Shown here: one piece after another, positions 359-15,226 of the stretch
Numbering within the stretch: position 1 is the first letter of the stretch
Layout: each line of letters starts with the position of its first letter
Assembly: GCA_037443035.1 (NCBI GenBank)
Contig: JBBIPC010000013.1
Location: 82,659-98,323, forward strand
Source of the DNA: Chthonomonadales bacterium
Lineage (GTDB): Bacteria; Armatimonadota; Chthonomonadetes; Chthonomonadales; CAJBBX01
Reading direction: 5' to 3'
Length of the DNA stretch: 15,665 nucleotides
Position numbers and translations under genes: made by a program
Notes under the pieces: model-generated
Databases searched by the model: none
What the model was told of the DNA's origin: nothing
What the model saw: only the letters and a program-made list of their open reading frames with translations

Positions 359-1696
359 CTACTGCAACTCCGGCAAGATCCCCTGCTGCAACCGAAGCAT
401 CTCTTCCAGCATCACAACTGCATTTCGGTAGCTGTTCACCGTCGGCTCCAACAGGAGTGCCTGCAGCAACTTCGCCTTCGATCGCTCGGCGAATGCTTCC
501 ACCAGCAACTTGTGGATGGAACCCTGGAGCCGGAGCATGGCCGCGATTCCCTCGGGAAGCGGTTCCATGCGGCACGGATGGACTCCGTCGGCATCGCCAA
601 GCGCCGGCACCTCCACGACCATGTCATCAGGCAAGTTGGGTATGGCACCACGGTTGGGCACGTTGACGGCCGCAAGGTCGTGCCGAATGCCGCAGCCAAC
701 CGCCTCCATGATGGGCACGGCAAGCTCTCCGGACGGCTTCAGTGGAGCGTCTTCCAGGCGAGTCGGTTCATCCGACGGCTTCCGCCATGGTCGGGTAGTC
801 TTGTCGCCGCTCAGCGAGTAGACGAACTCCGGTACGTGGCCTGTCTCCCACGGATGACCGTCGGCCGGATCGTAGAAGTACTGCAGCTCGCTTGCCACGA
901 ACTCGTCCGCCCAGCCAATGTACTCGCCGTAGTGATTGGCGCCAGGGGAAGGCCACAGACCGTACCGCCGGAAGAGAATACGGGCCAGTCCGATCTCGTG
1001 CCAGTCGGCCAGCCAGTCTCCTTCCGCCTCGGCCTGGCGGAGCTTTGGATAGAGGTCCTCGCCGGTTCGCCGGTCCCGGATGTACTGGAAGAACGTGAAG
1101 TGGTTGATCCCGCAAGCCGCTGCGTCCAGATCCGTGGGAGCCATGCCGAGAATGTGCGCCACCTGCGCCAGGCCGCCGAACACCCCATGGCACAGGCCAT
1201 ACACCCGAATGGAGGTCAGACGACTCACTGCCTCGCAGAGCTTGTGCTCGGGATTCGTGAAGCTGAGCAGCAGAGCGTCTGGGCAGAGTCGTTCCATGGT
1301 ACGCGCAATCTCCACGGTCGGTCCCATGTTCCGCAGAGCATGGAAAAGAGACCCAGGCCCGCCGTTCTCGCCGAAGACCTGCCGAAACCCGTAGTGGCGG
1401 GGCACATGGAAGTCCTGGCTCCAGTACAGGAACCGGTCCACCTCGATGGCTTTGACTACGAAGGACGCACCGTCCAGGGCCGCTTCCAGATTCGTCGTAG
1501 CTTCGATGCGGACTGCGCGCCCGAGACGGTCGGCGACATACCGCGCGTACTGCTCGGCTCGGTCCACAGGTTCCTCCAGGCGATCCATTAGCGCGACAGT
1601 CAAGCCGGTCTCGCAGAGGGCGTCGCTCAGGAGAACGTCTCGGATGCTCGAAGGACCGAAGGAACGGCTTCCGGCACCGACGATGGCGATCTTCAT
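359..1696 (-). CDS. Glycoside hydrolase family 4, NAD+/Mn2+-dependent alpha-galactosidase/alpha-glucosidase (MelA-like)
   Basis: N-terminal Rossmann motif KIAIVGAGS, plus GENGGPGSLFHALRN, FTNPE, YGLCHG (metal-binding Cys), GINHFTF and VNVPNRGAIPNLPDDMVVEVP. ATG at 1696 chosen because TGAGGTG (SD-like, overlapping the GH38 stop) lies 6 nt upstream. ATG 1702 and GTG 1705 are alternatives. Confidence 0.92.
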   Translation of the reverse strand: MKIAIVGAGSRSFGPSSIRDVLLSDALCETGLTVALMDRLEEPVDRAEQYARYVADRLGRAVRIEATTNLEAALDGASFVVKAIEVDRFLYWSQDFHVPRHYGFRQVFGENGGPGSLFHALRNMGPTVEIARTMERLCPDALLLSFTNPEHKLCEAVSRLTSIRVYGLCHGVFGGLAQVAHILGMAPTDLDAAACGINHFTFFQYIRDRRTGEDLYPKLRQAEAEGDWLADWHEIGLARILFRRYGLWPSPGANHYGEYIGWADEFVASELQYFYDPADGHPWETGHVPEFVYSLSGDKTTRPWRKPSDEPTRLEDAPLKPSGELAVPIMEAVGCGIRHDLAAVNVPNRGAIPNLPDDMVVEVPALGDADGVHPCRMEPLPEGIAAMLRLQGSIHKLLVEAFAERSKAKLLQALLLEPTVNSYRNAVVMLEEMLRLQQGILPELQ

Positions 1697-1706
1697 CTCC
1701 ATCACC

Positions 1707-4700
1707 TCACGCGTGGGGACATCCCGCCTGCACCAAGTAGGTACGAACCTCCCACGGGCGCAGGCTCACCTGGACTGCATCGTCGTTCAGTGGCACCGGG
1801 CGAATCGGTTCCTCGACAATGTTGGCCAACCAGACGGCCTTGGCACCCTTCAGCCGCATGCGAGCACCAGCCACTTGCCTGCCTGCGGTCTCGGCAACCC
1901 GCACCACAACATGATCCGACGCACATTTCGCCGGCTTCAGTGCCGTGATGGTAGCGGAGCCGCCATCCTGCAGGTAGGCGCCAAAGCTCACGTCGCCGTT
2001 CTCGAGCGGCATTGCATTCGGACAGGCGATGAGTGGCTGATTGAAGCCTGCTGCAACTCGCATGACCCCCGCGTCGCGCCAGTTGCCCGGATGTGGGAGG
2101 AACGAGTACCGGATCACATGGCGTCCGACGTCGGAGATGGCGTCGGGATCGTAAGCACTGCGAACCAATGTCATGCGCAGGCGGCAACCCATAGCGTCGT
2201 AGCCATGCTTGCAGTCATTCAGGAGCGCGAAACCGTACGTCGCTCCGCCCACATCCGCCCAGCGGAGCGCTGGCACTTCCTGCCCATCGGAGGGTCGCTG
2301 GACCGCCGCATATGGTGTCTCGAACCACGCCTCGCATTCCGGCATGCGCGCCGTGAACGCTACCTTCAGCCCCGGCACTCCCTTCTTGGAATCTCCTACC
2401 TCACGCCAGTCCAACACCGTCTCGAAATCCACCCGAGGTAGGTGCTTGTAGAAGACCATATGCTGGGTAATCGCGGAACGACGTATGCGGTGCTTGACTT
2501 CGATGGTGCAGTGGACCGGCCCTGTCTCGAGAACACGGCAGGTAGCGCCAGTGAGGAGGTTGTGCACGGCGGCCACCTCCTGGACCTCCCAGGCAGTCAT
2601 GGCATGGGGTAGCTCTTCCGTGAGCTGGAACACATTCAGCGCCAGGTCCGGTCGAGCGGTGTCCATGTAATCGCTGGGCTTGCGCATGCCAAACCCGACC
2701 AGCTCGCGATGGACTCGCTTGTCGTAGAAGCCGACGATGATGCCACAGTCGCGACGGAGGTAGGCGATGTAGTAGGGAGTCTCGATACGCCAATAGGGCG
2801 CCGTGGCCGCGGCCTCCGGTGTATCGGCGCGCCGACCATCCGTGGGGGCGTAGGCTGGTTCCGGCACGAGCGGAGCCTCCTCCGGCTTCCGGTCGGTAAT
2901 ACGATAGACGGTACTGTCGAACGCCGGCACGTGGGCAACGAAGGCGAGCCCGCCTGCAACGTATTGCCCCACGGTCGTCCTGCCGAGACTGTCCGCCAGG
3001 GTCACGGCGCCTTTGCCACGCAGCCCAGGCACGAAGACCCAGTCTTCCCGCTCCCACCCCAGAGGGTTGACGACGGTGACATGCCCTGGTCTCCGTACGG
3101 GCGCGAGGACTTGCGTGGCTCTGGAGATGGCCTGTTGGGCGGTCCGTTCCACCTCCTCGAAGTCTTGGCGGTTCTTGTTGTACACCTCGTGGATCGCCGA
3201 GCCGTCGAAGATGTCGTGGAACTGATTGAAGCAGACCGTGCGCCACGCCTCGGTCATTCCTGTATCTGGCAGGAGACCAGCCATGGCGACGAGCGCCTCC
3301 GCCGTGCAGAGGAGATTCTCTCCGTGCCGGTTGTATCGCTTCGTATCAGCATGGGTGCTGTAGCAGCCCTCGAAGATGGTGGAGGATTCCCCACGATGCA
3401 CAGGTAGCGGCACGCCGCTGTCCAGCAGTTCCCGCGCGTAGGCTGCCGTGGTGGAGCATCGCGCCGAAGGCAGAACCGGGATCTGCTGGAACCGCCGCAG
3501 AGCTTGCAGATTCTGACGCGACGGACCACCGCCGTGATCCCCGATGCCGTGGAAATGGAGGGCGCAAGGATGCCCGGCCCTGTACGCACGGATGGCCGCC
3601 GCCACGAGGTCTCGCGCGTGGATCTCCCCATTGTAGCTCGGTGTGGAGATGGCCAGTAGCCGCGTGCCGTCCTGCCCTTCCCACCAGTACGCTGGCCAGA
3701 GATCAACGCCGCCTGGGTTGGCTCGGTGGTGGTAATAACGTTCCGCACCTGCTGAGACCGCTAGCTGCGGCAGATTGCCCGCATGCCCGAATGTGTCCGG
3801 CGCGTGGAGCGTTGTGGGCGTGAAGCCCAAGACTTCCCTGGAGTACGTCACACCTTCGAGAAGTTGGTGTGCCAGCGCCTCTCCGGAGGCCATGTTCACA
3901 TCGCCCTCGACCCACGTCATGCTGATGGGCTCCCAGCGCCCCTCTCGGATACGCTCTAGCACCTTTGCGAAGAGCTCTGGATCTTGCTGACGAACGACCT
4001 CGTAGGTTGCAGGCTGGCTGTGAGAGAACGTCAGCTCCGGGAACTCCTCCATCAGGCTGATCACATTGCGAAAGTCCCGTTTGATCACCTCCACGGTATC
4101 CGGCCAGGTCCAGAGCCAGTTCATGTCTATGTGGCTGTGGCCAACGCAGTGCACGGGCACCTGCTTGGCGCGCTTGTCCAGGGGCAGAAGCGTTTCCGCC
4201 ATTGCTCGGAGTGCCGCACCGAGCGAAGCCTCGTCCTCCGGTAGTGTTTCGAGAAGATCGGAGGCCGCCTTCTCGACAAGGGCCCGCTCGTCAGGAGTCA
4301 TGGCTAGCGTGTCCGCCCATGCCAGTTGGGCCCAGGCGACGTCCAGCGCCTCGAAACGAGCCCGCAGCCTCTCCGTAGTGAACTTCATCTGGAACCAGGT
4401 GGTCGTCTGGTTGTTCGGGATGTGCAGCGTCAGTCTCAGCTCCCCGTTCGGGCCTTCTGCGAGCGAAGGGATGACGGTGAACAGGCATGGGCCCGCCGCA
4501 ACGGGCACCCCGCTCTCGGAGAAGATGGACTTCCCGTTCCATTCCACATCCGCAGGATAGAGGCTGAACATGGTCGCCTCCAGGCGGTCTCCTGTCAGGG
4601 GAACGCCTGCCACCTGAGCCGGGACGGACAGACGGCACGTAAGTGTCAGGTCCTTGCCAGGCTCCAGCGTGAGACCATGGAATCCCCCGCCGCCGTCCTG

Positions 4701-4823
4701 TACCAGCGTGTCCGGACCGGGTCCTGCCTCCTTGTGCCACACCGTATCGGGAAATGCGTTGAGGGCGCGGTCGGCAGCCGCACGCAGCCTCGCCAGGGCG
4801 GACTGAACCTTCTGACTGGACAT
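1707..4823 (-). CDS. Glycoside hydrolase family 38 alpha-mannosidase with an ~220 aa N-terminal extension
   Basis: GH38 motifs GHSHIDMNWLW (Zn ligands), WVEGD, PDTFGH (nucleophile), GIGDHGGGP, GCYSTHADTKRYNR and NQFHDIFDGS. GGAGG SD 5 nt before the ATG. No signal peptide evident. Confidence 0.93.
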   Translation of the reverse strand: MSSQKVQSALARLRAAADRALNAFPDTVWHKEAGPGPDTLVQDGGGGFHGLTLEPGKDLTLTCRLSVPAQVAGVPLTGDRLEATMFSLYPADVEWNGKSIFSESGVPVAAGPCLFTVIPSLAEGPNGELRLTLHIPNNQTTTWFQMKFTTERLRARFEALDVAWAQLAWADTLAMTPDERALVEKAASDLLETLPEDEASLGAALRAMAETLLPLDKRAKQVPVHCVGHSHIDMNWLWTWPDTVEVIKRDFRNVISLMEEFPELTFSHSQPATYEVVRQQDPELFAKVLERIREGRWEPISMTWVEGDVNMASGEALAHQLLEGVTYSREVLGFTPTTLHAPDTFGHAGNLPQLAVSAGAERYYHHRANPGGVDLWPAYWWEGQDGTRLLAISTPSYNGEIHARDLVAAAIRAYRAGHPCALHFHGIGDHGGGPSRQNLQALRRFQQIPVLPSARCSTTAAYARELLDSGVPLPVHRGESSTIFEGCYSTHADTKRYNRHGENLLCTAEALVAMAGLLPDTGMTEAWRTVCFNQFHDIFDGSAIHEVYNKNRQDFEEVERTAQQAISRATQVLAPVRRPGHVTVVNPLGWEREDWVFVPGLRGKGAVTLADSLGRTTVGQYVAGGLAFVAHVPAFDSTVYRITDRKPEEAPLVPEPAYAPTDGRRADTPEAAATAPYWRIETPYYIAYLRRDCGIIVGFYDKRVHRELVGFGMRKPSDYMDTARPDLALNVFQLTEELPHAMTAWEVQEVAAVHNLLTGATCRVLETGPVHCTIEVKHRIRRSAITQHMVFYKHLPRVDFETVLDWREVGDSKKGVPGLKVAFTARMPECEAWFETPYAAVQRPSDGQEVPALRWADVGGATYGFALLNDCKHGYDAMGCRLRMTLVRSAYDPDAISDVGRHVIRYSFLPHPGNWRDAGVMRVAAGFNQPLIACPNAMPLENGDVSFGAYLQDGGSATITALKPAKCASDHVVVRVAETAGRQVAGARMRLKGAKAVWLANIVEEPIRPVPLNDDAVQVSLRPWEVRTYLVQAGCPHA

Positions 4824-6985: not shown

Positions 6986-7567
6986 TTAGCTCAGCGTCTT
7001 GTCGCCGGGCTTCCAGTTGGCCGGGCATAGCTCGCCCGTCTGGATCGCTTGCAGGACCCTGAGAGTCTCCTCCACGCTACGACCCACGCTGAGGCTGTTG
7101 ATCACCGAGTACTGCAGGACGCCATCCGGATCAATGATGAACAGACCGCGCAAGGCAATGCCCTCTTCCTCGATGAGCACACCGTACTTCCGAGAGACTT
7201 CCTTGGTGATATCCGATGCGATGGGGAACCTTACGCCGGCGATGCCGTTCTGCTCACGCGGCGTCTGTAGCCACGCACGATGCGAATACACCGAGTCCGT
7301 CGAAACACCCAGCACGTCGGCGCCGAGTTTGAGAAACTCGTCGTAGGCGTCCGACATGGCTGTGATCTCCGTGGGACATACGAACGTGAAGTCCAGCGGG
7401 TAGAAGAACATCACGAGCCACTTGCCCTTGTAGTCGGACAGCGATGCCGTCGAAGAGAGAGTCTCCATGTCCGCCGTCGTCTTCATGGTGAAGTCCGGCG
7501 CGGGCTTGCCAACGCGCGCCGTATTGGCGACGTTCTGGCAGCAGTTGCACGTACACTCACAAGACAT
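6986..7567 (-). CDS. ahpC: Typical 2-Cys peroxiredoxin (AhpC/Prx1) with a Cys-rich N-terminal tail
   Basis: VGKPAPDF, FFYPLDFTFVCPTE (peroxidatic Cys), STDSVYSHRAW, ALRGLFIIDPDG, GRSVEETLRVL and LCPANWKPG (resolving Cys). Confidence 0.95.
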   Translation of the reverse strand: MSCECTCNCCQNVANTARVGKPAPDFTMKTTADMETLSSTASLSDYKGKWLVMFFYPLDFTFVCPTEITAMSDAYDEFLKLGADVLGVSTDSVYSHRAWLQTPREQNGIAGVRFPIASDITKEVSRKYGVLIEEEGIALRGLFIIDPDGVLQYSVINSLSVGRSVEETLRVLQAIQTGELCPANWKPGDKTLS

Positions 7568-7573
7568 GCCTTC

Positions 7574-8008
7574 TTATTCCTCCTCAGTCGTTTGGGATGG
7601 TAGCGGCTGAGCGGACTGGCACCCCGGGCAGATACCAGTCCACCGCATTTCGCAATCCTCGATCACGTATCGGGTCGCACCCTGGATCCGGTGCCGCGTG
7701 TGCTCGTATTCGCGGAATGGCACGTCGGTTACCACACCGCACCTGGAGCACACGATGTGGGCGTGCGCCCGCACGGTGGGATCGTAGCGCCGAGGGCCGC
7801 TCGGAGACGCGATGACGCGCACCCGTCCCGACTCTGCCAGTGACCCAAGAATTCGGTAGACGGTCCCCAGGCTGATACGTGGGAGCGCCTTGCGCGCCTC
7901 GTGAAAGACCCACTCAGCGGTAGGGTGGTCCGATGCCGAGAGGACCGCCTGCATGACGGCCTCTTTCTGCTTCGTAAGGCGTGTTGCGAAAGCCCGCTCG
8001 CGTTTCAT
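7574..8008 (-). CDS. perR: Fur-family transcriptional repressor, PerR type
   Basis: RLTKQK, DHPTAE, SLGTVYRIL, RYD-x5-HAH-IVCxxC...D and GICPGC. The regulatory-metal ligand pattern (H, D, H, H, D) and Zn-Cys4 site match Bacillus PerR. It sits 6 nt upstream of ahpC. Confidence 0.85.
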   Translation of the reverse strand: MKRERAFATRLTKQKEAVMQAVLSASDHPTAEWVFHEARKALPRISLGTVYRILGSLAESGRVRVIASPSGPRRYDPTVRAHAHIVCSRCGVVTDVPFREYEHTRHRIQGATRYVIEDCEMRWTGICPGCQSAQPLPSQTTEEE

Positions 8009-8299: not shown

Positions 8300-8654
8300 G
8301 GGGGTGAGTGGTGTCGACCTGGACGACGCCGGCCCTGGTTGCGAGCCGAGGCGCCGCTGGCCTCGTAAAAAGCGGCAAAACAACAAACGCGAACACTTCT
8401 CAGTACGCGTACGCGGCCTAATTAGGCTGCGCGTCCAACCGCTCCCTGTCGGCTGGAGCGGAAGAGGGCGTCACCCGAGCCGACTTACCGCCGAGGGCCA
8501 GTCCGTCGCCTGACAGCGGGACAACCAAGACGGAAGGGTGCGCGAGGATCCTGTCTGCGGGAGCTTCGAGCACGGGATCAGAACGCAGACTACGCTCGTA
8601 GACGCCGGGTGAGGGTCTCCGGGGACCGGGGTTCGAGTCCCCGCACCTCCACCA
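8300..8654 (+). ncRNA. ssrA: tmRNA (one-piece), tag peptide ANTSQYAYAA
   Basis: 5' GGGGGTG pairs with 3' CACCTCC-ACCA, including the G3:U Ala identity pair. TCGAC near the 5' end. T-arm CGGGGTTCGAGTCCCCG. pk1-like GAGGC/GCCTC and GCCGCT/AGCGGC. Resume codon GCG at 8389 after an A-rich stretch, and the tag ORF 8389-8421 ends in YAA-TAA. Confidence 0.97.
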
Positions 8655-8660
8655 TTTTCG

Positions 8661-8700
8661 GGAGGCCGGCCGCGGTAGGTCGGCCTTCTTGCTTCTTCCT
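8661..8700 (+). terminator. Intrinsic terminator of ssrA
   Basis: 11-bp stem GGAGGCCGGCC/GGTCGGCCTTC (two G-U pairs) with a 6-nt loop, followed by pyrimidine-rich TTGCTTCTTCCT. Confidence 0.7.
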
Positions 8701-8832: not shown

Positions 8833-9657
8833 CTACCCTTTCAGCCCAGTAAGGACGACGCCCCGTACAATGTGGCGCTGGAAGAGCAGAAATGCGACGA
8901 TCACCGGTACCGTCGCCACGGCAGCGGCCGCCATGACCAGTCCGTACTGCATGCTGTACCGTCCCAGGAAGATCATGAGTCCCACAGGCAGCGTGCGCAT
9001 CTCCGTCTCGTTCACGGCGATGAGGGGCAACATGAAATCATTCCATGCGCCGAGAAACGAGAAGATGCCCAGGGTCGCCAGCGCCGGTTTGCCCAGCGGC
9101 AGGATGATCTGACGGTAGATGCCGCCGGTGCTACAGCCGTCGATGACGGCCGCCTCTTCCAGCTCCCTCGGTATAGTCAGGAAGAACTGACGCAGGAGAA
9201 AGACGCCGAAGACCCCCGACAGCCCGGGCACGATGAGCGCATAGTACGTGTTGAACCAGCCGAGCTTCTGCAAGATCAGGAAAACGGGGATGATGGTCAC
9301 CTGGCCGGGGATGACGAGCGTCGCTAGCACTGCGAAGAAGACGGCATCCCGACCCGGGAAATCCAGCCTGGCGAAGGAATAGGCCGCCATGGAGCTGAGC
9401 AGGAGATAGGCGAAGGTCCCCACAAGTGAAACGAGAACGCTGTTGAAGAACCATCGGGTGACAGGTGCCTCCTCGGCCCGCTGCAGCAGTCCCAGGTAGT
9501 TGCTGAGTGTCGGATGCTGGGGCCACCAGTGGGGTACCGGCTGAAAGATCTCCGACTCGGGCAAGAAGGACATCACGAGCATCCAGACCACAGGCGCGAT
9601 GAATAGAACGGCCGCAGCTGTCATAGCGGCGTACAGGAGCACACGAGCCAGCTTCAT
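8833..9657 (-). CDS. Carbohydrate ABC transporter permease (CUT1, MalG/UgpE-like)
   Basis: WFFNSVLVS, MAAYSFARLDFPGRD, EAA motif IPRELEEAAVIDGC, WNDFMLPL and TLPVGL. Start moved to ATG 9657, which overlaps the upstream TGA (ATGA). Confidence 0.93.
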   Translation of the reverse strand: MKLARVLLYAAMTAAAVLFIAPVVWMLVMSFLPESEIFQPVPHWWPQHPTLSNYLGLLQRAEEAPVTRWFFNSVLVSLVGTFAYLLLSSMAAYSFARLDFPGRDAVFFAVLATLVIPGQVTIIPVFLILQKLGWFNTYYALIVPGLSGVFGVFLLRQFFLTIPRELEEAAVIDGCSTGGIYRQIILPLGKPALATLGIFSFLGAWNDFMLPLIAVNETEMRTLPVGLMIFLGRYSMQYGLVMAAAAVATVPVIVAFLLFQRHIVRGVVLTGLKG

Positions 9658-10538
9658 GCGCTGAAGTCCTCCCGGCGACCTGCTACGAGGCGGTACTGAA
9701 CAACCGTCAATCCCAGCACCAGCGCAAAGAGCACGTAGGCCACGGCACATGCATAGCCCATACGGTAAAGGCTGAAGCCTGTCTGGTACATGTAGAGCAC
9801 AACGGTCAGCGTGCTGTAATGGGGACCGCCGCCGGTGAGAATGTAGCTCTGTCCGAACACCTGGGACGACCCGATCAGCGACATGACCAGGCAGAAGAGA
9901 AGCGCCGGCCTAAGAAGTGGTAGCGTCACATGCCGAAACCGCGCCAGCGGCCCGGCGCCGTCTATGCGTGCCGCTTCATAGTATTCCTCCGGTATGCCCC
10001 GCAAGCCGGCCAGATAGACGAGCATGTTGCCCCCTGCACCCCACCAGATGCTCATGAGGGCCAGCGACGGCATGGCGAGCTTCGGGCTATTCAGCCACGC
10101 CAGCCTCGGTGCACCCAGGGCGGAGAGATAGTAGTTGAGGATGCCGAACTCGGTGCTGTAGAGCCACCGCCAGATAATAGCCGTGACCGCGACCGACAGC
10201 ACCACGGGCAGGTAGTAGACCGTCTTGAAGAGTGTCTCGCCTCGGATACGACTGTTCAGCCCCAGAGCCAGGAGGAGCGATACGCCGTTTCCCGGCACCA
10301 CCGTGAGGAGCGCGAAGTAGCCGGTGTTCAGGAGAGCACGGTGGAAGAGATCATCGGCTAGCAACGAACGGTAGTTGGAAAGGCCGATGAACGGCCGCGA
10401 CTGGCCGAGAACGTGCCAGTCGTGCAGGCTGATCCAGAACCCGTACACGACTGGCAGGGCCAGGAAGCCGATGAACAAGAGGAGGTACGGAGCGAGGAAC
10501 ACGTAGGCCGTGAAGCGCTCCTCCCAGCGTCGGTTCAT
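9654..10538 (-). CDS. Carbohydrate ABC transporter permease (CUT1, MalF/UgpA-like)
   Basis: FIGLSNY, EAA motif IPEEYYEAARIDGAG, RHVTLPLLRP, ILTGGGP and GYACAVA. ATGA overlap with the binding-protein stop. Confidence 0.94.
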   Translation of the reverse strand: MNRRWEERFTAYVFLAPYLLLFIGFLALPVVYGFWISLHDWHVLGQSRPFIGLSNYRSLLADDLFHRALLNTGYFALLTVVPGNGVSLLLALGLNSRIRGETLFKTVYYLPVVLSVAVTAIIWRWLYSTEFGILNYYLSALGAPRLAWLNSPKLAMPSLALMSIWWGAGGNMLVYLAGLRGIPEEYYEAARIDGAGPLARFRHVTLPLLRPALLFCLVMSLIGSSQVFGQSYILTGGGPHYSTLTVVLYMYQTGFSLYRMGYACAVAYVLFALVLGLTVVQYRLVAGRREDFSA

Positions 10539-11827
10539 GGCCGTTCCATCACCTGGCTAATCCGCCGGTGGGCCTCCCCCAGCGCCTCTTGCGGGCTTTG
10601 GAGACCGAGGAGTGAAGACTCGACGGCCGCATCATAGAATGGCGTGATCTCCGTCGCCTTGTGGGACGCCGGCTCGAAGACAACGTAGGGCAGCTCTTTG
10701 GCAAACTCCCTCTGCACGCGCATTGCCTCGAAGCGAGGATGGCGCAGTAGGGACTGACGCACAGGGATCTGACCGCCGGCCGCCCAGTCGAGACTGGTGT
10801 CGGATAGATACCGCATGAACCGCCAGGCCAACGCTGCCCGCTCGGGAGCGATCTTGGCGGGCATGCAGAGCATATGGGATCCGCCCCAGGCAGCCTTCCG
10901 ACGACCGAAGAGCGGCACCGGTGCGCCGGCATATTCCAGCCCTTTCTGCTCCTCCAGACTGGAAAGCATGTAGATCCCTTCGATGGCCATGGCCACCCGT
11001 CCCTGCCGAAAGCCCATCCACGAGTCGAAGCCCTCGGGTTTCGGAGCGATGCGGTAGCGGGAGATCATGTCCGCCATGAGCTGGGTGGCTTCTACGTTGG
11101 CAGGTTGGTTGATGGCCGAAGCGCGCAGGTCAGGCGTCAGGATGGACCCACCGAACTGGCTGATGAACGTGATCCAGTTGGTCCGTAGCCAAGTGAACGC
11201 GAAGCCCCATTGGTCCGGGCGTCCATCGCCGTCGCTGTCGCGGGTGAGCTTCCGAGCCGTGTCGAGGAACTCCGCAAGCGTGGACGGCGGTCGGGCTCGG
11301 CCGGTGGCGTCCACGATCCCGGCCTGGCGGAACAGCTTCTCGTTGTAGTAGAGTCCCTGCGGGTGGCAGTCCAAAGGGAGCCCGTACTGCTTACCTTCGT
11401 AGCGCGCCGCACTCAGGATGTTGGGTATGATATCGCTGAGCGGGAAGCTCCTGTCTCCGGCAACGACATCGTCCAGCGATCGCATGACGCCGTAACGGGC
11501 GAACTCCGCAAGACGATTGGCATGGCAGATGAACACGTCCGGAGCGCCCCCGTACGCCAGCGACAGGGTGAGCTTGTCGTAGTAGGTGGCCCAGGGGATG
11601 ATCTGCATTTTCACACGGAGGCCAGTATCCTCCTGGAAACGTTTGACGATCCGCTCCATGGTGGTGCCATCTGGTCCCGTGAAACCATTCCAGAATCGCA
11701 GGACGCCCGGCTCGGCCACCACGTGTGGAGGACGCCGTCCGCAGCCACCGACCACGAGAACTGCCACGGACACAAGCAGCGCTGTTCCCGCGCTCGCTGC
11801 CGAACCGCCGATTCTCCGCAAGGACAA
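10535..11827 (-). CDS. Sugar ABC transporter substrate-binding lipoprotein (SBP_bac_1/8 type)
   Basis: Hydrophobic signal ending VVGGC (lipobox-like), then FWNGFTGPDG, GGAPDVF, YEGKQYGLPLD, LYYNEKLF and FRQGRVAMAIEG. TTG start uncertain. Confidence 0.92.
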   Translation of the reverse strand: MSLRRIGGSAASAGTALLVSVAVLVVGGCGRRPPHVVAEPGVLRFWNGFTGPDGTTMERIVKRFQEDTGLRVKMQIIPWATYYDKLTLSLAYGGAPDVFICHANRLAEFARYGVMRSLDDVVAGDRSFPLSDIIPNILSAARYEGKQYGLPLDCHPQGLYYNEKLFRQAGIVDATGRARPPSTLAEFLDTARKLTRDSDGDGRPDQWGFAFTWLRTNWITFISQFGGSILTPDLRASAINQPANVEATQLMADMISRYRIAPKPEGFDSWMGFRQGRVAMAIEGIYMLSSLEEQKGLEYAGAPVPLFGRRKAAWGGSHMLCMPAKIAPERAALAWRFMRYLSDTSLDWAAGGQIPVRQSLLRHPRFEAMRVQREFAKELPYVVFEPASHKATEITPFYDAAVESSLLGLQSPQEALGEAHRRISQVMERP

Positions 11828-11843
11828 TCCCCAGCCGATTCCC

Positions 11844-12851
11844 CTACGGCGCCGTCTGTGGCGTTACTGTTGGGCCCAGCATGTAGGGTGTATCCCCACG
11901 CCAGAAGAGCCGGTCAATGCGCAATGTGCGGCCCAAGGGATTGGACCCGTACATAGGCTCGTTCTGGTCGTCCCAGCCATGATACGCCATCCACGTCTGG
12001 CCGTTGGGGAGCGTGATGATGCATTGGTGGCCTGGCCCATAGACCTTGCCAGGCACGGTCTCGAGGAGGGCGCCCGGTGACTTGGCGTAAGGACCTCGTA
12101 GCGAACGCGCCTGGGCGTGGAAGACGGCGTAAGACGCGTCCCTCTTGTACGACTGGAACCATCCTCCCGAGTAGAACAGATGGTAGATACCCCGACGGCG
12201 AATGAGCGTCGGCGCTTCTGTGACGCCCTTCTCCTCGGGCCTATCCGGCTTGATCAAGGCCGACACATCATCCTTCACGCTCAGGAGATCTGGCGCCATG
12301 CTCCGAATTACGATGCTTCGGGGGTCTTCTTCGGAGTAGACGAGGTACGGCTTACGGTCGCCATCGAAGAACACGGTTGTGTCAATGACCCCTACCCGGT
12401 TCGCACCGGCGCGCACGAGGATGGCCTTGTGCACGAAAGGACCCAGCGGGTGCTCGGCCACCGCGATGCCGATGTCGTGCTTGCGCGTCTCGGGGTTCAG
12501 GGCGGAGTAGGTCATGTAGAGCTTGCCCTTGTATGCGATAACTTCGGGTGCCCACAAGTGCTCCTTCGACCATGGCGGTTCGAAACACCCGCCTCGGTGG
12601 GTCCAATGCACCAAGTCGGGCGACTCCATGACCTGGAAGCCACCTGGGCCCGAATGGGTCGCATAGGCGTAGTACTTCCCCTCCCAGCGGATGATGAACG
12701 GATCAGGGAAATCCCGTGCCCAAACGGGGTTCGTGTAGGTGCGTGCGCGTGGACGCGGCCCACGCGAAGATGCGCCTTGCGGGGCGGCGCTCATTGCCAT
12801 CCACCCCGCAAGGCCAGCCACTATCAGCAGACCTGCCCTATGGAAAGGCAT
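11844..12851 (-). CDS. Exported glycoside hydrolase family 43 (arabinanase/xylosidase/arabinofuranosidase-like five-blade propeller)
   Basis: NPV...FPDP (catalytic base Asp), WAPEV, IDTTVF (pKa-modulating Asp), TEAP (catalytic acid Glu) and GPGH. N-terminal signal-peptide-like segment. Confidence 0.9.
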   Translation of the reverse strand: MPFHRAGLLIVAGLAGWMAMSAAPQGASSRGPRPRARTYTNPVWARDFPDPFIIRWEGKYYAYATHSGPGGFQVMESPDLVHWTHRGGCFEPPWSKEHLWAPEVIAYKGKLYMTYSALNPETRKHDIGIAVAEHPLGPFVHKAILVRAGANRVGVIDTTVFFDGDRKPYLVYSEEDPRSIVIRSMAPDLLSVKDDVSALIKPDRPEEKGVTEAPTLIRRRGIYHLFYSGGWFQSYKRDASYAVFHAQARSLRGPYAKSPGALLETVPGKVYGPGHQCIITLPNGQTWMAYHGWDDQNEPMYGSNPLGRTLRIDRLFWRGDTPYMLGPTVTPQTAP

Positions 12852-12860
12852 GGCACAGGT

Positions 12861-13703
12861 CTATGGCACGTGGAAGTTGCAGCGGTCGTCCCAGCCGCTG
12901 AAGTTTTGGCGCCACATGGTAGGCGTAACCGTGTGGCCACCCTTGACCACATCGGGGCCGATGCGGCGCCAGGTTGCCGCCCACTGGAGGAACTTCGCGT
13001 GACCGTCCAGGAAACCGTAGTTGGCCCCCCCGGTACCATTTGTCGCAACGTCGTCCCGGTTGGCGACTTTGGAGTGTCGGTCGAAGGCGACATTATGGCC
13101 GAAGTCCCTGCATACGTAGCCCTCGTCGGCCTCCCAGGTTGCCACCTGATGCCACTCCGCGTTGTTCCAGCCTGGTCGGCTTTCCACAAGCTGGATCGAC
13201 TCGGCCACCTGGTCAATGGAGGAAAGTTTCAGCGCATTCCATGGACCGTTCGGATAGTCACTGATGTTCAGACGGTAGGAGCCAGGAATGTTATCGGCCG
13301 TGGGGGCGTCCGGCAGCCCGCTCCAACTGTCGTTCCAGAGCCCTCTGGTATAGCTCTCGCTGTCCGAGGGACACTGGTACAGGTTCTTGTTCTTGATGTA
13401 GGCCTGGATGACATAGTCCCAGCCCCACATAGGGTCGCGCCACGGCCAGCAGTAGCGCCCGCCGTTGGGGCAGCCGTTCCAGCTCGGCTCGTCGTTGAAC
13501 CATGCCTTGGGCATGTACTCATCGTAATCCTGCGCGAACATCTGCAGCGCCATCGTGAGCTGCTTCATGTTGGACAGGCAGGAAATGGAACGTGCCTTCT
13601 CCCTCGCCTGGGCGAAAACGGGGAAGAGGATGGCTGCCAGTATCGCGATGATCGCGATAACCACCAGCAGCTCGATCAGGGTAAAGCCGAGAGATCGTTT
13701 CAC
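12861..13703 (-). CDS. Type IV pilin-like protein: prepilin N-terminal cleavage/methylation motif, DUF1559 (SBP_bac_10) and H-X9-DG-type C-terminal motif
   Basis: [37 protein letters not shown]...CLSNMKQL...DYDE, YQCPSD and RH...[13 protein letters not shown]. Strong SD GAAGGAGG before GTG at 13703, which gives a proper short basic prepilin leader. Confidence 0.92.
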
Positions 13704-13837
13704 AGAACCCTCCTTCTTGGCCGAATCCGTCGGCCTCGGTAATGGCGCGCCGAGGTCCGCTCTTCCGCGGCACCATCGGCGCATGTCGCGTAGTGTGCAC
13801 CGCTCGTAACTTGTGTCCTTGCCATGTGATCGGCCAC

Positions 13838-14197
13838 CTATCGGCCACCAGGTCGGCTGCCGTAGGCGCCACTGTAGGGACTAGAACCTGGCTGACCCTG
13901 GCCCGCAGGTCCCCTGCCGTAGGCGCCACTGTAGGGATTACCGCCGGATAGTTGACCGCTATAAGGTCCGGCGCCTGCAGATGTCCCGGGTCCTGCTGGG
14001 CGCTGGCCGTAGGGATTCTCGCCCCGCTTGCCGTAGCCAGGGGGTTGGTACGCTTCCTTGGGAAAGGTCCGTGGGTCCCTGGGACCACCAGCCGTGAGCG
14101 CTCGGAATCCCACCACCGCCAGCACAACCACCCCGATGGCTATGACGACCCATAGCGCCCAGGGAGGCAGTTCCGGCCCACCCTTGAGCCCTTTCAA
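13838..14197 (-). CDS. Small single-pass membrane protein with a Gly/Pro/Tyr-rich low-complexity repeat tail (hypothetical)
   Basis: SD GAAGGAGG upstream of a TTG that overlaps the regulator's TGA (TTGA). One hydrophobic helix ([19 protein letters not shown]), then NPYG, GPYSG and two copies of PYSGAYG. Confidence 0.75.
13857..13937. repeat. 24-bp exact direct repeat, two copies 57 bp apart and in frame, inside the small gene
   Basis: CTGCCGTAGGCGCCACTGTAGGGA at 13857-13880 and 13914-13937. It encodes PYSGAYG twice. Confidence 0.9.
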
Positions 14198-15162
14198 GTT
14201 CCTGTTCCTCCTTCGTCAATGCCCCGCCGTGGAGCATGGTTCCTCGGTACGTAGTGGAGACGCACCGTCGGGTCCTGATCGTAATTGCCGAATCCCCTGC
14301 CGAATAAGTTGAAGCCTCCCCGATGCTGGGCGTCGGCCTTGATGCCAATGCGGACGGAGATCGGTCCACGAGGCTCCATGCCGATCTCCGAAATCGTCGG
14401 CCCTGGCACCGACAGACCGTCCACGTAACAGCCTTCCCTGTCCACCGACCAGACCTTCATCATCCCGTACTGGGTCATGTGGTCGCTCCACCAGGGAGGG
14501 TTCAGCCGTCCGCGCCGCCCGCCCAAGTCCCCCGGTGAGGTCCACGTTCCCACCTCGGCACCGTTCAACCACACGGTAATGTCCGAGGGGTGATCATTGT
14601 CGTAGTCCGGACATTCGGAGCAGACCTCGGCAAGGAACTCGAACCGGACCACCTCGACGGAGGATGGGAGCGTGTTGGGAAACACGTACTCCACGAACCC
14701 ATCCTGCATCCAGAGGAGACGGGCCGTGCCCCGATCCGGGTGATAGAACGACTGCGGCTCGTCCAAGAAACCGATGACTCGTTCGGAGTTGACCAGACCG
14801 CATGTGGGGACAGGTCGGGCCTGAGTGAATAGCCCGACCGGCATGCTTATTTCTTCCACGCAATCCTCAGGGGAACGGAAGCCGTTGAGCGCGATGACCA
14901 CCCGCTCGACGGCGATGTGACAGCGCTTCTGCATGCCCTGTACGCCAGGCATGTACTCACTCTGCACCAGCCCAGCCTGCTCGAGGATCTGCATGTGCTT
15001 CGTGACCGTCGGTTGGGACAACCCGAGCGCGGCACCGATCTCGTTGATATTCCGGTCACCGTCGGCGAGCAGGTTGAGAATGCGCAGGCGCGTCTCCGAG
15101 CCCAGCGCCCGAAAGGTATCGGCGCTCGTCTTCACGCTTAGCTGAAGAACGCCTGAAGGCAT
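14194..15162 (-). CDS. ArsR-type HTH transcriptional regulator with a large C-terminal domain (COG4189-like)
   Basis: FRALGSETRLRIL...NINEIGAALGLSQPTVTKHMQILEQAGLV, then GMQKRC, MPVGLF, PTCGL, GFVEYVFPN, EVCSECP, PSDITVWLNG, WTSPGDLGGRRGRLNPPWW, TQYG and GGFNLFGRGFGNYDQD. From recall, this family often lies beside GH43/GH51 arabinan genes. Confidence 0.88.
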   Translation of the reverse strand: MPSGVLQLSVKTSADTFRALGSETRLRILNLLADGDRNINEIGAALGLSQPTVTKHMQILEQAGLVQSEYMPGVQGMQKRCHIAVERVVIALNGFRSPEDCVEEISMPVGLFTQARPVPTCGLVNSERVIGFLDEPQSFYHPDRGTARLLWMQDGFVEYVFPNTLPSSVEVVRFEFLAEVCSECPDYDNDHPSDITVWLNGAEVGTWTSPGDLGGRRGRLNPPWWSDHMTQYGMMKVWSVDREGCYVDGLSVPGPTISEIGMEPRGPISVRIGIKADAQHRGGFNLFGRGFGNYDQDPTVRLHYVPRNHAPRRGIDEGGTGT

Positions 15163-15197
15163 GGCACGTGCCTGTGCTCGATAGCTTACTCGCTATG

Positions 15198-15226
15198 AGT
15201 ATAGCAGAACGTGCAAGAAAACGCAA
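15198..15226 (-). promoter_or_regulatory. Sigma70-type promoter for the regulator/pilin/GH43/ABC locus
   Basis: Minus strand TTGCGT (15226-15221), 17-nt spacer, TATACT (15203-15198), with an extended -10 TGn. Located about 35 nt upstream of the regulator ATG. Confidence 0.7.

Follow-up and report, generated by a model that had tools for sequence, protein, structure and literature searches.

A DUF1559 pilin as a probable inducible, glycan-matched module in a GH43 and sugar transporter gene cluster of an Armatimonadota bacterium

Prepilins of the DUF1559/SBP_bac_10 family (PF07596) have expanded greatly in several bacterial phyla, and their copies are scattered over the genome and flanked by genes with signal peptides (PMC8567305). 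In Planctopirus they form the largest family of function-unknown paralogues with 68 copies (PMC10632474), and a further source describes DUF1559 as a large family without known function (PMC4807772). Pili and uptake in planctomycetes have been treated elsewhere (PMC11131199, PMC6461901), and operons are scattered in Chthonomonas (PMC4959169). In the bindosome (Bas) of Sulfolobus solfataricus, the solute-binding proteins themselves carry a class III signal and there is a dedicated bas operon (PMC3047682). Streptococcus sanguinis PilC (PMC9934059) and Akkermansia MUL2 (PMC13174399) involve one or few subunits, with a lectin module grafted onto PilC. Our literature search, which most subscription journals lay outside, found no publication in which sugar regulators or glycan loci are connected with DUF1559 genes. 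How polysaccharides are captured without SusC/SusD in phyla with expanded DUF1559 is the question addressed here. We analysed a 15,665-nt stretch (the window; contig C13, 82659-98323) of the 3.76-Mb, 100% complete genome of a Chthonomonadales bacterium. It holds a cluster of seven genes, all on the minus strand, which encode in order a regulator, a small protein, a DUF1559 pilin, a glycoside hydrolase of family 43 (GH43), a binding lipoprotein and two permeases of an ATP-binding cassette (ABC) transporter (Table 1).

We propose that the pilin of this cluster is probably an inducible module matched to a particular glycan. The protein carries a class III signal peptide, with a six-residue leader, Gly, then Phe1 and Glu5, followed by an aromatic-rich head. 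It scores above the cut-offs of PF07963 (34.4 against 21.2), TIGR02532 (28.8 against 16.3), PF07596 (41.5 against 23.3) and TIGR04294 (21.6 against 19). An insertion extends the spacing from His to Asp-Gly to 22 residues, versus 9 in several relatives. A longer reading from an ATG at 13784 was rejected, since in the orthologues a ribosome-binding site precedes a start that lies just a few codons ahead of Phe1. Genome-wide, in a set of 3012 genes called with a codon model built for this analysis, a strict pattern recovered 41 pilin copies; two canonical and about four divergent copies escape it and are excluded from every count, and one of the divergent ones was among the control proteins. All ten LacI or GntR-type sugar regulators found in the genome (eight LacI and two GntR with a sugar-binding domain) lie one or two genes upstream of a same-strand pilin, with a P of 4e-18 given 58 such slots among 2971 genes, and 0 of 124 control proteins belong to these two regulator types. 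In addition, two of the three DeoR-like genes and the single ArsR-type gene of the genome, which is the regulator of the window, are found within two genes of a pilin. The enriched words upstream of the 41 pilins were promoter-like and ribosome-binding ones only, and no other shared motif emerged.

The pilins are also accompanied by small proteins with a single transmembrane segment. Twenty-four of the 55 such proteins in the genome lie within two genes of a pilin, with 2.1 expected and a P of 3e-18 reached already at 22 of 55, and a small anchored partner stands beside 27 of the 41 pilins. The recurrent unit is a regulator, a pilin and a small anchored protein, rather than a pilin and an ABC transporter, and several cassettes of this kind have no adjoining enzyme. 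The initial annotation names these three genes but offers no interpretation of the unit. The small protein of the window has no match in Pfam or NCBIfam and its orthologues hold the same position; it might serve as escort or anchor of its own pilin. A suspected likeness of the N-terminus of the small proteins to archaeal pilins was set aside as it has no Pfam or NCBIfam support. The tail of the small protein (window 13838-13930) includes near-repeats of a Pro-Tyr-Ser-Gly-Ala-Tyr-Gly unit, visible as repeats in the DNA, and is shorter or absent in the orthologues of group g50. A second, lipoprotein-like partner type occurs in loci L009, L011 and L019 (g0674, g0696, g1395), and some lipoprotein-like partners have a short predicted helical hairpin in place of the Pro/Gly tail. 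One small single-transmembrane protein of the pilin-partner type (C7:92732-93061) has no adjoining pilin and is encoded 9 kb from a pilus locus.

Comparison across the phylum revealed that the heads go together with particular glycan genes. The window pilin head is 81% identical to that of Chthonomonadales relatives, and at a cut-off of E ≤ 1e-25 this head has counterparts in 31 of 400 further genomes of the phylum, 23 of which were examined as wide loci. GH43 was found in 15 of these 23 loci and the same binding protein in 14, with either of them in 16. By group, GH43 and/or the binding protein are present in 3/3 loci of g17, 6/6 of g50, 0/4 of f3 and 0/1 of g9. In f14, where the pilin gene immediately precedes that of the binding protein and the regulator is of the LacI type, the binding protein is kept in 5/6 loci and GH43 in 4/6; f29 has GH43 in 2/3 loci and no binding protein. 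The GH43 enzymes are 26-30% identical in f14 and 34-37% in f29. With such divergent enzymes in both groups and a LacI regulator in f14, the link between pilin and glycan genes therefore outlives the replacement of its partners. A g1048-like neighbour in f3 initially looked like a hydrolase; it gave no match in either Pfam or NCBIfam and was left uncounted.

A second head clade (g0547), whose head is 25% identical to that of the window, has matches in 37 of the 400 genomes. A glycoamylase-family gene, which we take to be GH144-like, adjoins the pilin in all 29 loci retrieved for this clade, 26 of which also carry LacI, and GH43 or the window-type binding protein occurs in none of them. The GH144-like gene in turn is present in 0/29 window-clade loci. 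The head clades track glycan genes and are never crossed between the two clades, which agrees with the view of the initial annotation that the pilin is a substrate-matched module. Judged from the gene neighbours, arabino- or xylo-type glycans of the kind cleaved by GH43 enzymes are candidate ligands of the window head, and a likely beta-1,2-glucan, presumably the substrate of GH144, is the candidate for the g0547 head. Loci L093, L094, L096 and L112 have a second cassette of regulator, pilin and small protein, from a different clade, in the space separating the GH43 and binding protein genes. In G028, L162, L247 and L248, the same regulator and ABC genes are accompanied by pilins of other clades. 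Proteins P0020-P0034 of the head clade differ in their stem type, show the motif with its literal spacing of 9 residues and are possibly from another phylum. When a divergent member was used to scan metagenomes, most of the loci obtained were of the Armatimonadota type, and no GH43 was seen in three short divergent ones.

Induction of family members by glycans is seen in the published RNA-seq of Fervidibacter sacchari, a cultured relative grown on eight polysaccharides (PMC11535203), in support of the initial annotation. Among its 30 rows named DUF1559, which exclude those named 'prepilin' and none of which is assigned to the clade of the window, 12 vary at least 5-fold and five at least 10-fold, with peaks on six substrates. 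A rough and non-random background of 28 nearby rows has two and none, respectively (p 0.005). WP_259096448 (LacI), WP_259096451 (DUF1559) and WP_259096453 (hypothetical) are all highest with starch (log r 0.96 and 0.996), and the accessions flanking this trio vary little. Similarly, WP_259101407 (GntR/LacI) and WP_259101409 (pilin) peak together on gellan (r 0.94). Gene adjacency in this organism was deduced from accession numbers. Glycan-dependent co-expression of regulator and pilin is thereby shown in a relative. In the main text of that paper pili appear in the author contributions only, and its proteome columns name xanthan where its methods name xyloglucan.

Several observations weigh against a scheme in which the pilin captures a glycan and delivers it to this transporter. 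A surveyed regulator lies one or two genes upstream of only 12 of the 41 pilins, in a survey that left out AraC, ROK and two-component regulators. The initial annotation had proposed to look for DUF1559 genes beside sugar regulators, carbohydrate-active enzymes and sugar-binding proteins; the regulators bear this out, and the other two do not. Glycan-active Pfam matches number 14 among 175 pilin neighbours of at least 135 aa versus five among 124 controls from 20 random stretches (2 of 126 dropped by the size limit), which is not significant (p 0.23), and only one of ten ABC binding proteins is within three genes of a pilin, a chance-compatible figure (P 0.53). Neither GH43 nor the binding protein is present in seven of the 23 window-clade loci. 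Related genomes have inherited operons in common, which makes the locus counts non-independent, and in each set 12 loci belong to a single genus. Orthologues of the binding protein occur in 102 of the 400 genomes, versus 31 for the head. Among 20 orthologous ABC loci, picked from genomes without an already known pilin linkage and in part ending at contig ends, three have a canonical pilin, one a divergent pilin and 16 none. In G001, a 96% complete genome from the same genus, the binding protein occurs at 75% and no pilin adjoins it, and head and regulator were not found there. In F. sacchari, protein abundance does not always follow the RNA peak (PMC11535203). Moreover, TonB-receptor matches (one to six each) were found in 88 of 151 genomes of the phylum, sampled g50 genomes included; the idea of a phylum-wide lack of these receptors was rejected, and their absence is therefore local. 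The pilin is accessory to the ABC system rather than its obligate partner, and the SusD analogy of the initial annotation is not supported in the sense of an obligate partnership. Multi-pass membrane proteins of the DUF6785/DUF6784 type (19 genes, 318-681 aa) are possibly a second transporter class; of 20 phmmer rows for DUF6785 proteins, three have a pilin no more than three genes away.

The best solved relative of the GH43 enzyme is 4qqs (E 2.6e-38), and the two Asp and one Glu expected for catalysis, the roles of which we presume from the family, align with it. The enzyme is below every NCBIfam arabinanase cut-off and is likely of the arabinofuranosidase/xylosidase type. Solved relatives of the binding protein include 5ci5 and the arabino-oligosaccharide-binding 6rjy. 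No N_methyl match was obtained for the binding protein, which carries a lipobox, and none to SBP_bac_1 or SBP_bac_8 for the pilin. The cluster provides the binding protein and two permeases of a carbohydrate ABC importer of the CUT1 type and contains no ABC ATPase. A MalK-type ATPase (ABC_tran plus OB_MalK) encoded on contig C3 would presumably energise the importer.

Assembly machines are encoded on other contigs, as the initial annotation had supposed. Four PilB/GspE-type ATPase matches, several shorter PilT-like ones and six secretin matches were found elsewhere in the genome. Contig C7 carries a type IVa pilus locus with PilD, PilC, PilT and PilB, C6 a type II secretion system (T2SS)-like locus and C10 a third machine locus; BamA is also present. 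The pilus locus of C7 (101856-136147; L035, L036) also encodes very large subunits (2792, 1659 and 1001 aa) and a secretin. Contig C34 (L034:2322-7082) has three tandem secretin genes with no ATPase or pilin gene nearby, and these secretins are candidate dedicated outer-membrane channels for DUF1559 pilins. SusC (PF00593) and SusD (PF07980) gave no match in this complete genome, in line with the earlier reading of the window, and both were detected in Bacteroides controls.

Based on these results, we propose a scheme for the cluster. The regulator would repress its own operon at a palindrome behind the promoter, and an arabino- or xylo-type sugar would release it. The pilin would be one of about 40 exchangeable glycan-specific subunits. 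Produced along with the small partner and processed by PilD, it would be built into a type IV filament that these subunits share, where its aromatic-rich head could bind the matching glycan. Retraction of the filament might then draw the glycan to or through a secretin, toward the periplasm, where GH43 would cut it and the ABC transporter would import the pieces. We infer every physical step of this scheme (autorepression, PilD cleavage, assembly, glycan binding, secretin entry and the role of the small protein), and regard the whole capture-and-deliver mechanism as the likeliest of the explanations considered, though one that falls somewhat short of probable. A still wider generalisation, in which Armatimonadota and probably the PVC (Planctomycetes, Verrucomicrobia, Chlamydiae) phyla replace SusC/SusD by a type IV filament with interchangeable sugar-induced DUF1559 tips, each binding one glycan and delivered by a small-protein escort of its own, and polymer entry through secretins, is speculative and rather unlikely as a whole. 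If capture and delivery hold true, glycan import would be added to the functions of bacterial type IV filaments and a set of new glycan-binding proteins would be gained. Two head clades with candidate ligands, together with induction data in a cultured relative, make direct binding and knockout tests possible.

The pilin might instead be a glycan-specific adhesin. Built into a pilus, it would hold the cell on particles of its cognate polysaccharide, and the sugars would enter in another way. This explanation, which we consider unlikely, shares the regulatory and clade evidence given above, and fits the optional nature of the ABC linkage. It has precedents in the lectin pilin PilC, which mediates adhesion (PMC9934059), and in the type IV pili of Fimbriiglobus, which are cited as helping adhesion to chitin (PMC11131199). 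However, the pilin of f14 is placed directly before the binding protein, and no TonB-receptor match is available as an alternative route in this genome, in a search that did not extend to sugar porin families.

A second alternative, unlikely to a slightly greater degree, is that the pilin stays unpolymerised in the inner membrane and acts with its small partner as a periplasmic glycan binder or sensor, feeding transporters or signalling. No assembly gene is linked to the cluster, the anchored partner recurs beside most pilins, and planctomycete proteins with N_methyl and SBP_bac_10 fractionate unlike plain pilins (PMC8567305). However, the Gly or Ala at the cleavage site is kept in 41/41 pilins, and the median identity of the paralogues to the window pilin is 80% over the first 55 residues versus 24% in the head, which is more stem conservation than a plain anchor needs. 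The AlphaFold2 model (34-row alignment, predicted local distance difference test score (pLDDT) 92) shows a helix over residues 2-53 and a compact, loop-rich head, so that the predicted structure has the N-terminal helix of about 50 residues carrying a globular head that is typical of type IV pilins. A VIA fold search with the full model returned type IV pilins in all of its top 16 rows, every one of them below Z 5 (best Z 4.9, root mean square deviation 3.4, 110 aligned). Foldseek gave no match for the full model at E ≤ 0.001. The head-only model (pLDDT 72.7) found nothing by Foldseek and nothing at Z ≥ 2 by VIA, a result that implies neither a new nor a different fold. A profile search of solved structures matched the stem alone and not the head, and the ESM Atlas returned only unnamed or DUF1559 clusters. 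The heads contain 15% Trp, Phe and Tyr versus 7.5% in the proteome, a richness that is compatible with sugar binding and also with a packed core.

A third explanation, which we hold to be improbable, places the pilin in a T2SS pseudopilus, as the cargo adaptor through which the glycan enzyme encoded beside it is exported or displayed. In its favour, a signal peptide is predicted for the window GH43, the gene of which begins 9 nt past the end of the pilin gene, and a T2SS-like locus is present on C6. However, by a hydropathy rule only, GH43 is leaderless and starts at the catalytic domain in 11/11 g50 loci, and the GH144-like enzyme is leaderless in 15/29 loci (12 of g50 and three of f47), with the pilin still adjoining. 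T2SS cargo must reach the periplasm before export. A role as export adaptor for the neighbouring enzyme is therefore unlikely in those genomes. The cassettes without an adjoining enzyme also speak against this explanation, with the reservation that cargo could be encoded elsewhere. Finally, the pilin could be a mere passenger, a member of a large paralogous family that came to lie in a sugar operon and has been passed on with it, which would agree with the missing head in most genomes that have the binding protein and with the non-significant enzyme enrichment; we dismiss this as very improbable in view of the 10/10 regulators coupled to pilins, the different partners kept by two clades across families and through partner replacement, and the co-induction in F. 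sacchari.

The coordinates and family matches agree with the gene order and orientation read in the initial annotation. Overlaps of 4 nt join the regulator and small protein genes, the binding protein and first permease genes, and the two permease genes, and GH43 is followed by the binding protein gene after 16 nt. The seven genes are probably read as one transcript. The 134-nt gap between the small protein and pilin genes contains the hairpin listed in Table 1, and hairpins of differing sequence at a similar distance were seen in most of 16 orthologous upstream regions, folded without a shuffle control. For the single promoter claimed in that annotation, the putative extended -10 before the regulator stands, and promoter-like elements recur at the matching position in the nine orthologous upstream regions compared; a strict consensus scan of the window found no site, as the extended -10 is below its threshold. 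The palindrome pattern has a single match in the whole genome and recurs in 8/9 f1/g50 orthologue loci and 0/7 more distant loci, where the 8/9 is partly circular as the pattern was derived from the same loci. The ArsR-type regulator is present in a single copy, with orthologues of 56-74% in 6/40 relatives. The order of the seven genes is intact in G023 and G021, and G017 keeps 5/7 genes up to its contig end, with differing flanking genes in all three. The cluster is thus a real and conserved arrangement beyond chance, and belongs to a pattern that runs through the whole genome. Scanning 13 window proteins detected no pilus or T2SS assembly genes, which also had been noted at the outset. Two other gene groups of the window lie outside the system. 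A separate sugar cluster, unlinked to the present finding, encodes GH38-like and GH4 proteins with a purple-acid-phosphatase-like gene upstream (359-4823, minus strand), and at 6986-8008 (minus strand) a peroxiredoxin whose N-terminus is rich in Cys comes after a Fur/PerR-type regulator, as an ordinary oxidative-stress pair.

Table 1. Features of the pilin-containing cluster and its borders, in positions of the window
Feature	Coordinates	Strand	Evidence or remark
ArsR-type helix-turn-helix regulator, 322 aa, large C-terminal domain without assignment, alternative start 15135	14194..15162	-	PF01022 52.4 bits
Small single-transmembrane protein, 119 aa, Pro/Gly-rich tail	13838..14197	-	class accompanying pilins
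DUF1559 / H-X9-DG prepilin, 280 aa, GTG start	12861..13703	-	PF07963 34.4 bits, PF07596 41.5 bits
GH43 glycoside hydrolase, predicted signal peptide / N-terminal hydrophobic stretch	11844..12851	-	PF04616 188.5 bits
Sugar ABC solute-binding lipoprotein, lipobox Cys29	10535..11827	-	SBP_bac_1 PF01547 106.7 bits
Sugar ABC permease 1	9654..10538	-	PF00528
Sugar ABC permease 2	8833..9657	-	PF00528
Transfer-messenger RNA (tmRNA) gene, convergent, downstream boundary, outside the system	8300..8654	+	ARAGORN
Terminator-like hairpin by the tmRNA gene	8660-8689		
Putative sigma70-type promoter: extended -10 15198-15206, weak -35 ~15221-15226	15198..15226	-	read from sequence
Palindrome with 5-bp arms set 6 bp apart, immediately downstream of the -10; putative operator for the ArsR-type regulator	15181..15196		
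Hairpin just upstream of the pilin ribosome-binding site	13719..13735	-	sequence

Taken as a whole, the system resembles several known ones without matching any of them. Similar to the described DUF1559/SBP_bac_10 prepilins, the window pilin has a class III signal peptide as well as matches to PF07596 and TIGR04294, and belongs to a large scattered expansion with export-signal neighbours; unlike in the published accounts consulted, which give no role, the pilins here are linked with regulators of the sugar type, with a small anchored protein and, in each clade, with particular glycan genes. It resembles the bindosome, in which class III signal proteins take part in ABC sugar uptake and depend on a type IV pilus-like ATPase (PMC3047682), whereas in the present case the solute-binding protein is an ordinary lipoprotein, the pilin is separate and has no binding-protein match, an outer membrane is present and the machine is unlinked. 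Type IV pilin-like proteins in contact with glycans are also known from PilC and MUL2 (PMC9934059, PMC13174399), in contrast to which dozens of separately encoded paralogues occur here, and no solved structure was found to match their loop-rich head. As in a polysaccharide utilization locus of Bacteroidota with SusC/SusD, a regulator, a candidate glycan-matched surface protein, a hydrolase and a transporter are united in one locus and there are many copies; unlike there, SusC and SusD have no match, the pilin is optional for the ABC transporter and most cassettes have no transporter. The pilin is a DUF1559 member, and the system to which it belongs is by its defining features neither a polysaccharide utilization locus nor a bindosome, yet it would work like a pilin-based counterpart of both.

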